Shown piece after piece: positions 12,571 to 39,857 of a DNA stretch of 64,000 nt. How positions within the stretch are numbered: position 1 is the first letter of the stretch; every line of letters starts with the position of its first letter. A program made the position numbers and the translations under genes. The notes under the pieces are model-generated. The model did no database searches. It was not told the origin of the DNA and was given only the letters and a program-made list of their open reading frames with translations. The stretch is from Octopus vulgaris (Eukaryota), in assembly GCA_951406725.2 (NCBI GenBank), contig OX597841.1, positions 13,330,001 to 13,394,000 on the forward strand, in the 5' to 3' direction.

Positions 12571-14219
12571 TTCAAGTATTTGTTTCAGACTGTGGCCATG
12601 CTGGGGCACCACCTTGAAGAGTTTTAATCAAAAAATCGACTGCAGGACTTATTTTTTTTTTAAGCCTGGTACTTATCAGTCTATTTAGCTGAACTGTTAT
12701 GGGGATGTAAACACACCAACATTGGTTGCTAAGTGGTGATGAAGTGACACATCGATATATATATATACATATACATATGATGGGCTTCTTACAGTTTCTC
12801 TCGACCAAATCCACTCAGGTTTTGGTTGGCTTGAGGCTATAGTAGAAGAGACTTGACCAAGGTGCCACAGAGTGAGACTGAACCCAAAACCAAGTGGCTG
12901 GAAAGCAAGCTTCTTACCATAACAGCCACGCCTGCACCTAAAAAAAAATCTTGTGACACCCTCCAGAAGCTGAAACTCAGGATTGAACAGAAGACCTTTA
13001 GATCTTCAGCCTAATGCTGTCCCAAATGAGCTATTTTGTCTCATTGAAGCCCATCATACATATATATTTATGGAAGTGATTTTAAATTCTCAAAATACAG
13101 GATAATGCTAATAATATAGCCTGAACAGGATAAGCTACCCCTATTTTGCAGGGAAAAGTGTTGGCGGCTATGAGACTCGAACTCACACCTCTGTGATTAC
13201 ATGTCATGATGCTCTGATCCAAGTGTCTCATATATGTCTGTCTGTCTGATTGTCCTTTAACGTCCATTGTCCTTACTGGCATGGATTGGATGGTTTGACT
13301 GGGCTGGCATGCTGGAAGGCTGCACCAGGTTCCAGTCTGATTTGGCATGGTTTTCTACAGCTGGATGCCCTTCCTAATGCCAAACACTCCGAGAGTGTAA
13401 TTGGTGCTTTCAGGTTCCACTGGCACAACACCTGGGTGAATTTACGTGCGACCGGCACAGGTGCCAATTTGCATGATACCCATTATCTGTCACAACTGCA
13501 ATTCTGCTCTGTTTGATGGGTCTTCACACACACACACACACACACACACAATGGGTTTCTTTCAGTTTCTGTCTATGAAATCCACTCGCAAGGCTTTGGT
13601 CGGCACAAAACTATAGTAGAGGACATTTGCCTGAAGTGCCACAGCATGAGACTGAATCCAGAACCATGCGGTTCGGAAGCAAGCTTCTTACCACCCAGCC
13701 ATGCCAGCCACCTAACATGTATTTTCTCTTTTCCACGAATTTTGTTTTTCTTATTCTTGACAAACCAGAAATATCACACACAAGATAAAAAAAACAAACC
13801 CACCCTCATGGCCGATGCTACGCACCCCGAGTCTTTGCAGATGGGGCTCACTTCTGTTTGTCCCAGCATCTGGTTAGAATCTGCGGACATGATGTTGTTG
13901 GTGCTGTTATTCTCGTTAGCTCTGTCGCTAATGCAACGAAGACAGTTTGGTAATTACTTAAATAGGGAATGACATATTTTAGTGCAGTAGGTCAAACGTT
14001 TATAATTAATTAAAAATTGCTCTGTGGGTGGGGATGGGAAATATGAAAGAGGGGGTGGGGGACTGGGAAAAATAAGCTCGAAGAAGGGAAATGGTTGTTT
14101 GGTTAATAAGTTTGCTTCTTAAGCAAGTGGTTCAGTCCCACTGCGTGGCGCCTCGTCTTGGGCAACTGTCTTTTACTGTAGCTGCCAGGGTCAACCAATT
14201 CCTTGTGAGCAGATTTTTT

Positions 14220-21478: not shown

Positions 21479-22202
21479 ATATACATCATATTTATATATA
21501 TATATCATATTTATATCCACATATGTACGTATCTGTGTGAAACGAAAGATCTCAGATGTGACTAACATAAAAATAATTTCAAACTTCTCCAAGAATGTCG
21601 ATGTCTTAGCGATATATTTCCTTCTTGGCGTTTATCAGATGTCTGCCTCCAGTTGCATGGTATCCTGTCTGCATCCGATGCTGCTGCTGCTGCTGCAAAG
21701 AACGGTTGCTCAGTGTTCGCTTCAGCTCTGGCAAAAGGGAAATACCATGCGAGAATTTCAGTAGAAAGTTGATGGTGGTGGTGGTGGGCGGTGTCATGGT
21801 TGTTGTGGAGGTGGTGGTAGTGGTGGCTTTTGTGGAGGTGGTGGTGTCAGTAATTGTGGTAGTGGTGGACATGATGGTTGTGGTGGAGAAGTGGTGGTGG
21901 TCATCTTCAGTTGTGGAGGTGGTGTTGGTGGTAGTTGTGAAGTGGTGGCATTGGTGTGGTTCTTGTGAAGGTGTTGGTGGTAGTGGTAGCAGTGGTGGTG
22001 GTAGTTGTGGAGGTGGTGGTTGTAGTCACAGTGGCTGTTGTGGTGGTTGTTACAATGGTGTTGGTGATAATTGTGATGTTGGTGGTGATGGTGGTTTTCT
22101 CACCAGTGATGGTTGTAGTGGTAATTACTACTACTTGTGGTAATGATGGTTTGTTAGTAGTGGTGGTCATGGCATTAATTATACTGATGTCAGTAGTGGT
22201 GG

Positions 22203-22251
<49 letters not shown>

Positions 22252-22254
<3 letters not shown>

Positions 22255-24995
22255 GTATGTAGAAAAATACAACATGGACAAGAACGTATAACTCTTAGAA
22301 GACGACACAATAAACACAGACAGGACATTCGAAACCCTCAGTCTTCAGTCAAGAACCGGATCATCGTAGTAATTTCGGCTGATTAATCTTGAGATTACTA
22401 GATCACGGCCAGCCCTCCAAGAAAAACAAGCAACGAGCATTAGAAAAACTAAGCTGGAAGCGTAGATTTCCTGGAAGAAGGATCGAATGCATACGAACAC
22501 CAGGACAGCAAAAGGGACAGATATAAAAAAAACAAAAAACAATAATGGAATACAGAAACATGAAATACAGAAGCATTAACGGTGAAAACAACGGTGTCTT
22601 ACGACTGATAACAAGCAAACAAATTTTTTCTCTGGCGCAATGGAAAAAGCCTTTATAGTGGCGGACGAAAACAGCGATGTTAACAGAACGAGGGTCAGAG
22701 GCTGAAAGGCAGATTTCGGCCAACAGTCACGTGACAGAGAAGAGGGAAAAGAAAAGAAAGAGAAGCAAAGGAAGAGAGAGAGAGAGGAGGGACAAACGCA
22801 ACAAAGAGAGAGAAGAGAGAGAAAGAAGGAATCAGAGAGGAGAAGGGATGGGTGTCGAAGAATGACCTGTGAGTGCAGAGCGAGACAAAGAAATAGGAGG
22901 GTAGTGGAAGACTAGACCAAAGAATCAGAGGAAAGAGAAGAGAAAAAGAGGATGAGTAGAGAGAAAAGAGAGAGAGGGGGACAGATCAAGTAAAAATGAG
23001 AGAGAGAGAGAGAGACAAACAGAGAGTCGTACCAATTATTAAGAATATGTGCTCACATAAATGTTAAGGGGGGTACGGGGCGCCTGGAATATATGTTAAG
23101 GTATGTAGAAAAATACAACATGGACAAGAACGTATAACTCTTAGAAGACGACACAATAAACACAGACAGGACATTCGAAACCCTCAGTCTTCAGTCAAGA
23201 ACCGGATCATCGTAGTAATTTCGGCTGATTAATCTTGAGATTACTAGATCACGGCCAGCCCTCCAAGAAAAACAAGCAACGAGCATTAGAAAAACTAAGC
23301 TGGAAGCGTAGATTTCCTGGAAGAAGGATCGAATGCATACGAACACCAGGACAGCAAAAGGGACAGATATAAAAAAAACAAAAAACAATAATGGAATACA
23401 GAAACATGAAATACAGAAGCATTAACGGTGAAAACAACGGTGTCTTACGACTGATAACAAGCAAACAAATTTTTTCTCTGGCGCAATGGAAAAAGCCTTT
23501 ATAGTGGCGGACGAAAACAGCGATGTTAACAGAACGAGGGTCAGAGGCTGAAAGGCAGATTTCGGCCAACAGTCACGTGACAGAGAAGAGGGAAAAGAAA
23601 AGAAAGAGAAGCAAAGGAAGAGAGAGAGAGAGGGAGGGACAAACGCAACAAAGAGAGAGAAGAGAGAGAAAGAAGGAATCAGAGAGGAGAAGGGATGGGT
23701 GTCGAAGAATGACCTGTGAGTGCAGAGCGAGACAAAGAAATAGGAGGGTAGTGGAAGACTAGACCAAAGAATCAGAGGAAAGAGAAGAGAAAAAGAGGAT
23801 GAGTAGAGAGAAAAGAGAGAGAGGGGGACAGATCAAGTAAAAATGAGAGAGAGAGAGAGACAAACAGAGAGTCGTACCAATTATTAAGAATATGTGCTCA
23901 CATAAATGTTAAGGGGGGTACGGGGCGCCTGGAATATATGTTAAGGTATGTAGAAAAATACAACATGGACAAGAACGTATAACTCTTAGAAGACGACACA
24001 ATAAACACAGACAGGACATTCGAAACCCTCAGTCTTCAGTCAAGAACCGGATCATCGTAGTAATTTCGGCTGATTAATCTTGAGATTACTAGATCACGGC
24101 CAGCCCTCCAAGAAAAACAAGCAACGAGCATTAGAAAAACTAAGCTGGAAGCGTAGATTTCCTGGAAGAAGGATCGAATGCATACGAACACCAGGACAGC
24201 AAAAGGGACAGATATAAAAAAAACAAAAAACAATAATGGAATACAGAAACATGAAATACAGAAGCATTAACGGTGAAAACAACGGTGTCTTACGACTGAT
24301 AACAAGCAAACAAATTTTTTTCTCTGGCGCAATGGAAAAAGCCTTTATAGTGGCGGACGAAAACAGCGATGTTAACAGAACGAGGGTCAGAGGCTGAAAG
24401 GCAGATTTCGGCCAACAGTCACGTGACAGAGAAGAGGGAAAAGAAAAGAAAGAGAAGCAAAGGAAGAGAGAGAGAGAGGAGGGACAAACGCAACAAAGAG
24501 AGAGAAGAGAGAGAAAGAAGGAATCAGAGAGGAGAAGGGATGGGTGTCGAAGAATGACCTGTGAGTGCAGAGCGAGACAAAGAAATAGGAGGGTAGTGGA
24601 AGACTAGACCAAAGAATCAGAGGAAAGAGAAGAGAAAAAGAGGATGAGTAGAGAGAAAAGAGAGAGAGGGGGACAGATCAAGTAAAAATGAGAGAGAGAG
24701 AGAGACAAACAGAGAGTCGTACCAATTATTAAGAATATGTGCTCACATAAATGTTAAGGGGGGTACGGGGCGCCTGGAATATATGTTAAGGTATGTAGAA
24801 AAATACAACATGGACAAGAACGTATAACTCTTAGAAGACGACACAATAAACACAGACAGGACATTCGAAACCCTCAGTCTTCAGTCAAGAACCGGATCAT
24901 CGTAGTAATTTCGGCTGATTAATCTTGAGATTACTAGATCACGGCCAGCCCTCCAAGAAAAACAAGCAACGAGCATTAGAAAAACTAAGCTGGAA
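22252..24995 (-). mobile_element. Tandem array of an ~845-bp non-coding retroelement-like unit (3 full copies plus a 208-bp partial) inserted in (TA)n; Penelope-pLTR/retrozyme-like
   Basis: Units start at 22252, 23098, 23943 and 24788 and are almost identical. (TA)n lies on the left, and atatat plus GAT/GTG-rich host sequence on the right. The terminal 208 bp are homologous to dispersed TA-flanked copies at 34.2 and 39.4-39.9 kb. No credible ORF. The array is directly visible; the class assignment is inference. Confidence 0.85.
22332..22414 (-). ncRNA. Hammerhead-like motif with non-canonical strand order (repeated at 23178-23260, 24023-24105, 24868-24950)
   Basis: Minus strand reads GUAA-UC-UCAAGA-uuaau-CAGCC-GAAA-UUAC...UCUUGA-CUGAAGA-cugag-GGUU. 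Stem I is UCAAGA/UCUUGA, stem III is GUAA/UUAC, and the triplet is AUC. Confidence 0.4.
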
Positions 24996-25383
24996 ATATA
25001 TGATGTTGATGAAGTTGTTTAACTTTCGGTTTCCCTATCAAGGGCAATCCAACATTGACCATCCTGTCTGTGTGTATCAAGGAATATATTGCACAATCTA
25101 CTCATGATAGATTAAGATTGGTGGTTGGGGTTTAAGGGAGGTTTCACTGCTATTTCTAGGAAGGTGAGTGACTGCATACAGGCCGTCATCACGATGGTGG
25201 TGGTAGATATGGATGCACACACACACATGTTCATATACACATTCATATACATGTGTGTGTATATAATTTAGAAATGGAATAAAATCTTTATAAGAATTTA
25301 TCAAGTAGTCAGTGTGAAAAACCTCATAAGAGAAAAAAAACACCAGTTTTTTCACTTAAATATATTTATTTATATGTATGCCC

Positions 25384-34099: not shown

Positions 34100-34403
34100 T
34101 GTATTTATATTTGTGTAACATTGTCTGTTTTCCATCCTTGCTTTTGTATACATTCGCTGCTTTCTTCCAAGGAATCTAATGCTCTTAGCTTAGTTTTTCC
34201 TTGGGGCTGGCCAGATTGGAGCAATCTCAAGAATAATCAGCCAAAATTGCGAGGATGATTCGGTTCTTGACTGAAGATTAAAGGCTTCGAATGACCCGTC
34301 CGTGTTTTTTTTGTATTGTGTATCTGGATGTTTTGTTGTCGCTTTTTGTATCACCTAGTTATCCGGATATTTTGCGTTCTTGTCCCATTTTGTATTTCAT
34401 TTT
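34100..34403 (+). mobile_element. Dispersed older copy of the same TA/CA-targeting element 3' region, including the hammerhead-like motif (34205-34290)
   Basis: ggctggccagattggagcaatctcaagaataatcagccaaaattgcgaggatgattcggttcttgactgaagattaaaggcttcgaatg aligns with the minus strand of the array unit. It ends in cgttcttgtcccattttgtattt followed by microsatellite. Confidence 0.75.
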
Positions 34404-38089: not shown

Positions 38090-38650
38090 GTAGCTGGATC
38101 TGGTAGAAATAGCAGCCAAATCTCCCTCGGATCACACCCTACTGTCTTATGTATGAGCCAGTAAGGGAAACCTCTACATGGTAGCTATAGCTGGTAGAAA
38201 TAGCAGCCAAATCTCCCTCAAATCACACCCTACTGTCTTATCTATGTATATATGTATGTATGAGCCAATGAGGGAGACATCTACATGGTAGGATGACCTG
38301 GTAGAAATAGCAGCCAAATCTCCCTCAAATCACACCCTACTCTCTTATCTATGTATATATGTATGTATGAGCCAATGAGGGAGACCTCTACGTGGTAGCT
38401 AGACCTGGTAGAAATAGCAGCCAAATCTCCCTCAAATCACACCCTACTCTCTTATCTATGTATATATGTATGTATGAGCCAATGAGGGAGACCTCTATAT
38501 GGTAGCTAGATCTGGTAGAAATAGCAGCCAAATCTCCCTCAAATCACACCCTACTCTCTTATCTATGTATATATGTATGTATGAGCCAATGAGGGAGACC
38601 TCTACATGGTAGCTAGACCTGGTAGAAATAACAGCCAAATCTCCCTCCAG
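38090..38650 (-). repeat. Same ~107-bp satellite in reverse orientation (5-6 units)
   Basis: tggtagaaatagcagccaaatctccctc at 38101, 38192, 38299, 38406, 38513 and 38620. Confidence 0.9.
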
Positions 38651-38910
38651 TCACACTGTATAACCTTCAAAAAAATCAAAGGGCACATTGAGTAGTGAAG
38701 TTGCTGGTGTATATAAAGAGATGGGTTGGTCATAACTGGAATGTCTGGGGTTGAACAACAGAATTTTATATGAATATTTAGCTTGATGAAGATTAATGTT
38801 GATGAAATCAATGATTTATGTGACTGATGCAATCATGTGATGTGCACCATAGCTGCATGTATCAATGAAGCACGTGCAGAAAGTGCATACGCTCACATAG
38901 CCTCTCTCTT

Positions 38911-39366: not shown

Positions 39367-39369
<3 letters not shown>

Positions 39370-39857
39370 AGCCGAAAGTGTGAGGATGATCCGGTTCTTG
39401 ACTAAAGATTAGAGGCTTCGAATGACCTGTCCGTTTTTTGTGTCGTCTCTTTGAGTGTTTTGCGTTCTTGTCCCATTTTGTATTTTTATATATATATTTT
39501 TATACTTTTATATATATATATATATAAGAAAACTCCAAATGACCCATCTTTGTTTTTACTTGTCCCTTTTTGTATCATCTGTCAGGATATTTTGTTGTTG
39601 CCTGTTGCGGTCTTGTCCCAATTTTGGGGATTTTGTTTATATATATATATATAGCAGCGTACATACACTTTGGTCTTTCTCTGTCTCTCTAGCTGAAATT
39701 GTGAAGATGATCTGGCTCTTGACTGAAGATAAAAGGCTTCGAATGACCCGTCCTTGTTTTCTTTGTATCGTCTATCTGGATGTTTTGTTGTCCCTTTTTG
39801 TATCACCTAGTTGTCCGGATGTTTTGCATTCTTGTCCCATTTTGTATCTTATTTTAT
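39367..39857 (+). mobile_element. Three consecutive 5'-truncated 3'-end fragments of the same element, each ending in (TA)n
   Basis: Fragments at ~39367-39487, ~39530-39638 and ~39690-39857 share (ttcgaa)tgacc...cttgtccca motifs and are separated by (TA)n. Confidence 0.75.

Follow-up and report, generated by a model that had tools for sequence, protein, structure and literature searches.

Metazoan non-LTR retrozymes are described, in the parts of the two sources drawn on here (Cervera and de la Pena 2020, PMC7229834; Li et al., bioRxiv 10.64898/2026.07.22.740005), as non-coding tandem repeats with one hammerhead ribozyme per unit and a GC content below 45%, for which a circular intermediate and a Penelope-like helper have been proposed. 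Their hammerheads are of type I and their units mostly measure 150-450 bp. In the type-SGC hammerheads (Eckert et al. 2023, PMC10085705), the blocks follow the order S-G-C, the linker from stem I to stem II is short, and an extra helix links the far ends of these two stems. The sections of that work available to us assume block C, which contains CUGANGA, to be indivisible, and state that SGC ribozymes have not been found in genomes of known organisms. The pseudoknot hammerhead (Zhan et al. 2024, PMC11300833) has a hammerhead core in which a pseudoknot provides the equivalent of helix II; its connectivity is Pistol-like and, in the portion of the article consulted, no break between A9 and G10.1 is described. 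Among Penelope-like elements, the Naiads are coding and insert at (TA)n; according to the parts of Craig et al. (2021, PMC8557442) used here, they are without canonical hammerheads and Naiad_Ovul is labelled HHR_half_core. Poseidon of Anolis starts reverse transcription inside its RNA at AT-rich targets and, in the experiments covered by the consulted text of Frangieh et al. (2024, PMC11167929), ribozyme cleavage was not needed by this one characterised Penelope-like enzyme in vitro.

We analyzed a 64,000-nucleotide stretch of the Octopus vulgaris genome (contig OX597841.1), hereafter the window, in which a tandem array occupies positions 22252-24995. Like non-LTR retrozymes, the family to which this array belongs is built of non-coding tandem repeats whose units each contain a hammerhead, and its copies are dispersed in a genome that also holds Penelope-like elements. 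It differs from them in its 845-bp unit, in a split-core hammerhead whose permutation is non-circular, and in a strictly fixed end at (TA)n.

The array is composed of a non-coding unit of 846 bp (22252-23097), two units of 845 bp (23098-23942 and 23943-24787) and a 5'-truncated fourth unit of 208 bp (24788-24995), all read on the minus strand; the preliminary description had given three units of about 845 bp and a 208-bp partial one. Between units there are no substitutions and the only indels lie in simple runs (one G, one T and one GA dinucleotide). The differences had been presented as length changes in simple runs, which is correct, and as single-base changes confined to GA/G runs, which is not, given the two-base GA change and the T run. 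To the left, the array abuts a target tract of (AT)23.5 (22205-22251), in agreement with the (TA)n reported earlier for the end of its minus strand; to the right stand three AT units (24996-25001), the rest of the TA tract at the truncated end. As AT repeats are found at both edges, the array splits one TA tract. The absence of coding capacity was also borne out, the longest stop-free stretches of the array being 45-111 aa of low-complexity sequence. The unit is devoid of the reading frame for RT and GIY-YIG that defines an autonomous Penelope-like element, and no such frame was adjacent on the same strand at the motif loci examined. One contig of a DNA run (X1) begins exactly at the right junction, at 24996, without any base of the element, a weak hint of an empty allele in that sample. 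In another run of raw DNA reads with the same species label (X23, about 3% read), positions 21900-25300 had almost no coverage; for a family with hundreds of copies, this could reflect a different lineage or read filtering.

A search of the octopus genome with the unit yielded 1,757 first-look candidates, and the 40 that were scored were 99-100% identical to it. Twenty inspected loci, located on many chromosomes, carried 0.8-4.3 units each, with one and the same left end at (TA)n and 20 different right ends; across loci, the length of the partial unit ranged from 46 to 815 bp. The fixed end, with the same type of junction as at 22205-22251, was common to 30/30 other loci (20 top hits, six sampled by position and four further ones). 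Its sequence was TATATATT at 29 of these loci and TATATATA, as in the window, at the remaining one. Since the left end at (TA)n is shared, it corresponds to the 3' end of the minus-strand RNA. The right ends of 21 long insertions, a sample of top hits biased to long copies, fell at 21 different positions compatible with a uniform spread (KS p=0.83). With one end fixed and the far end variable, the 208-bp piece is a random 5' truncation and not a terminal repeat, so that the earlier view of it as a pseudo-LTR bracketing spacers had to be abandoned. The partial tandems resemble those known from Penelope pseudo-LTRs in having a fixed 3' end, a variable 5' truncation and a microsatellite target.

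Near-identical units that differ only in simple runs might be produced by an assembly artefact, a local tandem duplication, a satellite or a terminal repeat of DIRS/LTR type. We regard all of these as highly improbable, because the unit is found at dozens of loci on many contigs with differing unit counts and one fixed end, and because sister subfamilies display the same architecture. Furthermore, the fixed-length terminal repeats around a coding body expected of DIRS/LTR elements are missing: no coding region separates the repeats, and the length of the partial unit is not constant. Combined, these results indicate that the array is a recent insertion of a young, dispersed, non-coding retroelement family; the preliminary description had already taken it for a recent retrozyme-like insertion at a TA microsatellite, a view that is upheld against an assembly artefact or an ordinary satellite.

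Two more young sister subfamilies (L263-L272, L139, L159) are likewise arranged in tandem, with units of 691-713 bp and 777-793 bp. In an old lineage (L155, L200-L224; 333 candidates, about 83% identity), the stem sequences are entirely different and the split-core layout is the same. Three older, 5'-truncated relatives are present on the plus strand of the window itself (34175-34314, 39368-39494 and 39691-39773); they are about 76-80% identical to the end of the unit and each stands beside TA or CA runs. Elsewhere in the window, a weak tRNA-like match (31 bits) at 12971-13040 on the minus strand is probably a tRNA-derived repeat, and related minisatellites of 107-110 bp occur in opposite orientations at 1734-2206 and 38148-38656.

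To describe the ribozyme, a hammerhead descriptor accepting any strand order was applied to the unit. It gave one match, and none in 2,000 dinucleotide shuffles. The first complete copy lies at 22325-22490 on the minus strand, as delimited by the descriptor, covariation and helix folding. In RNA order, it consists of the 5' strand of a closing helix P0 (22490-22477), a P5 hairpin (22475-22416), the 5' strand of stem II (22414-22409), P4 (22408-22401), stem III' with AUC, ending at C17 (22399-22393), stem I' (22392-22387) and, after a linker of 4 nt, stem II' (22382-22377); these are followed by GAAA and stem III (22376-22368), P4' (22362-22356), stem I with CUGAAGA (22354-22342) and the 3' strand of P0 (22339-22325). 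This order is non-circular: the CUGANGA strand is parted from stem II and two helices close the gap. The descriptor located complete motifs in the next two units, at 23171-23336 and 24016-24181 on the minus strand. The ribozyme-like motif of the preliminary description is confirmed as a hammerhead core, its unusual strand order having been missed; of the four copies then counted, three are complete. In the fourth, the hammerhead core is retained and both closing helices are missing their 5' strands, because helices at unit positions 216-239 fall past the end of the 208-bp piece.

The core elements of a hammerhead are present, namely CUGANGA, GAAA, U16.1 and H17 beside stems I, II and III. With type-SGC hammerheads, the octopus motif shares the S-G-C order, a short linker between stems I and II, and the interaction stem; it differs from them in that block C is broken between A9 and G10.1, with two helices closing the break, and in that a strand of stem II lies 5' of the cleavage site. 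Its order, II-S-G-C with block C split, is also not the CGS order of type I. Searches of the unit against Rfam, at gathering and E-value thresholds, found no ribozyme family, and a metagenome scan for the split-core motif gave 0 matches. An HDV-like reading was weighed by eye and dropped.

Conservation of the motif was assessed over the genome. A pattern fixing core and anchor bases only had 6,908 matches, versus 6 for the control. For the pairing analysis, 50 distinct motifs were assembled from 57 sources (the window, six loci, the first 10 of the 100 matches listed, and 40 regions chosen by hand, mostly because they were divergent). Mean pairing was 5.72/6 for stem I and 4.72/5 for stem III, and stem II paired with its upstream strand at 4.66/5 versus 1.84/5 at the canonical downstream position, 0-2 nt after CUGANGA, where type-SGC hammerheads have their stem II strand. 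A canonical SGC stem II right after CUGAAGA was ruled out on these values. Six different fully Watson-Crick versions were seen for stem I, five for stem II and eight for stem III; by this comparison of aligned sequences, the three stems covary across subfamilies. Position 17 was C in 38 of the 50 motifs, A in 10, U in one and G in one. The arms flanking the break form two helices, leaving 0-2 nt after A9 in 49/56 motifs and 0-1 nt before G10.1 in 46/56. Stem III and P4 are joined in 40/50 motifs by a kink-turn pattern; motifs of the window type carry U instead of one of its G residues.

A second search was made with the flanks only (2,158 matches versus 5 for the control). Thirty loci were taken from it and one misregistered row was dropped, leaving 29 (22 distinct). 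C3, U4, G5, A6, G8, A9 and A13-A15.1 were invariant in all 29, G12 was retained in 27, and N7 was variable. This pattern bears on the possibility that the fold is non-catalytic, for instance a hammerhead descendant that binds protein or stops RT, with the pile-up of copy ends described below being due to RT stalling or a protein nuclease. Such an interpretation could appeal to the pseudoknot-free minimum-energy fold of the unit, which differs from the active fold in that stems I and II are absent, and to known hammerheads, which carry no insertion of more than 1-2 nt next to CUGANGA in the sections of Eckert et al. (PMC10085705) available to us. We nevertheless judge it improbable, as there is no variation at the catalytic positions, and N7 and the three stems vary in the ways that hammerhead rules permit. 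In the literature searched, with subscription papers outside its coverage, no description of this wiring was found, and what could be consulted of PMC3088659, PMC6765202, PMC13725137, PMC10162972, PMC7936874, PMC13282606 and PMC4209133 reports only small core insertions or other variants.

The descriptor predicts cleavage after AUC, between 22393 and 22392 on the minus strand, with equivalent sites at 23239/23238, 24084/24083 and 24929/24928. A cut at the other AUC, in AUGAUC, was rejected because descriptor and covariation place it after GUAAUC. Among the matches listed (best 100 of 699), 21 loci of the window subfamily truncated near the motif could be resolved. Their 5' ends, scored by eye as abutting a TA run within a window of 29 positions, were exactly at the predicted bond in 5 cases and at most 8 nt on its 3' side in 15; only 1/21 fell in the 20 positions beyond it (binomial p about 1e-9). 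With a broader pattern, the tally was 5, 14 and 2 of 21 at, inside and beyond the cut, respectively, four loci being common to both lists. Microhomology with TA may bias these counts; AT-rich positions beyond the predicted cut are empty of copy ends. Two of 20 Naiad copies, both at one locus, also begin at their predicted cut. The pile-up at the predicted bond therefore points to cleavage in vivo, and self-cleavage of the family RNA after AUC is likely. RT stalling on a non-catalytic fold is further disfavored by these results, given that the edge of the pile-up lies on the predicted scissile bond and not at the 3' entry of the structure, and that the two Naiad copies just mentioned begin at their own predicted cut.

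How a cleaved RNA could give rise to arrays depends on where reverse transcription begins. Just beyond the position of the fixed end, the units contain an internal ATATAT (23089-23094, with further copies at 23934-23939 and 24779-24784, plus strand), the putative annealing site for a nicked TA target. The same design is found at the tandem junctions of a young Penelope-like family and of the sister subfamilies. Poseidon, by comparison, uses a start site lacking homology to its target in the text consulted (PMC11167929), whereas the internal AUAUAU of the octopus unit matches the TA tract. A cut linear monomer primed at this internal site can give only about 141 bp; anything longer requires that the template be circular or uncut, or that the enzyme jump between templates. 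One copy, L181 (1.17 units), ends precisely at the predicted cut, and partly cleaved linear precursors therefore serve as templates too. Such a copy agrees with a scheme in which the ribozyme is real and no covalent circle is formed, the arrays being derived from read-through transcripts of tandem arrays already in place, as linear multimers left uncut or cut in part, or from template jumping on linear monomers. Tandem arrays are common in the genome, and unprocessed RNA was the dominant substrate of the Poseidon element in vitro, as far as the accessible description goes (PMC11167929).

The sequence of the units within arrays is informative in this respect. Full-unit pairs were free of substitutions in 26/28 comparisons within arrays and in 178/602 between arrays. 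Each of L037, L049 and the array of the window has private variants that recur in all its units; unit-specific changes, too, are seen in L031 and L032. The 67A state of the window was matched exactly eight times, four times within the window and once in each of four single units elsewhere, and no other array of the assembly carries it throughout; 67A is a CpG change and can recur. From these comparisons, the private variants favour one monomer read repeatedly, and an unassembled homogeneous donor would also fit. Linear templates would require for the same variants either a single-monomer template or an unseen homogeneous donor, no array in the assembly has 67A in all units, and 0/21 long insertions end at the cut. 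Templating without a circle is consequently rated as rather unlikely, though it is the most serious competitor of reverse transcription around a circle.

Sequencing runs were inspected for the presence of the unit. It was present, whole or in part, in 20 listed runs from 8 studies. In four runs (three guessed to be RNA and one of unknown kind), contigs cover the whole unit at a word depth of about 19 to 1,600, with zero depth on the flank 25052-25243; one further run had a depth near 3 on the unit. The run contigs carry the variants of the main subfamily, not those of the window. Two contigs close at unit length, a closure that tandem transcripts would give equally.

The preliminary description had called for an autonomous Penelope-like partner. 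Two young Penelope-like families with intact RT and C-terminal GIY-YIG frames, of 781 aa and of 1,049-1,132 aa, do end at (TA)n; the latter shows 99.8% mean identity over its 3' 270 bases (12 copies). What did not hold was the expected sequence link of the unit, and of its 208-bp end, to such ORFs: across 50 loci, the 781-aa family bore no resemblance to the unit, the other family gave chance-level hits only, and both were set aside as relatives of the unit. Both have a CX4CX2C linker, a feature tied to Neptune elements in the consulted part of Craig et al. (2021, PMC8557442). The 1,049-1,132-aa family (L225-L228, e.g. G000:C2:55914500-55922500) is 4.5 kb long, forms partial tandems and has, by eye, a hammerhead-like motif of minimal type I form in which position 3 is U. 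The 781-aa family (L111-L130) has a repeat-rich 3' region with two alternative 3' ends at (TA)n, and descriptors detected no convincing hammerhead in it.

A different connection emerged with the Naiads. The 3' ends of the published octopus Naiad consensuses are wired in the same split-core fashion and have other stem sequences; the genome contains 357 exact matches to the Naiad split-core motif. Of 20 sampled copies, 12 form 5-6 of the 6 possible Watson-Crick pairs in the upstream stem II, and at most 3 pairs are formed at the downstream position. These copies, with a mean pairwise identity of 0.83 and a maximum of 0.92, look old. We infer that the ribozyme is shared with the Naiads and that the motor is of Neptune type, which is the weakest step of the explanation.

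Taken together, we propose that a dispersed family with a covarying, rewired hammerhead recently inserted here to form the array, and that a Penelope-like reverse transcriptase, with a TA tract as the place of priming within the RNA, travelled 3.25 times around a circle of about 845 nt; we assign this reading a probability of about 0.63. The dispersed copies, with their fixed end at (TA)n, variable far end and conserved hammerhead core, covarying and ordered II-P4-S-G-P4'-I/CUGANGA, are its observed starting point. The RNA would cleave itself after AUC, as the pile-up of copy ends suggests, and monomers would be ligated into circles. A nicked (TA)n target would then anneal to the internal AUAUAU, which lies about 141 nt downstream of the cut. 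Short inserts ending at the cut would come from linear cut RNA, and multi-unit arrays ending anywhere would come from circles. The enzyme would come from a young, TA-targeting element of Neptune type, the ribozyme wiring being common to the Naiads.

The family works like a non-LTR retrozyme, with a hammerhead that is not of type I. In a broader form, it would be an active lineage of animal retrozymes whose hammerhead lies outside the six described permutations, split at A9/G10.1, with two stacked helices and a kink-turn bend, and its ribozyme would be the one presumed absent from Naiads. The genome would preserve the two outcomes of the cycle: linear cut RNA would have left short inserts, and circles on which priming took place internally, through annealing of TA, would have left multi-unit arrays. 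We hold this joint proposal to be somewhat better than an even bet. If true, a natural hammerhead wiring would break the assumption that the CUGANGA block is uninterruptible, and about 7,000 copies of this wiring would be present in the genome of an animal. The 'half-core' Naiads would also be accounted for, as would the failure of type I descriptors to detect whole families of retrozymes. In the young arrays, the cut site is known, the priming site is fixed and there are private variants, which makes testable the long-standing proposal that Penelope-type tandems result from more-than-unit reverse transcription of a circle made by a ribozyme.
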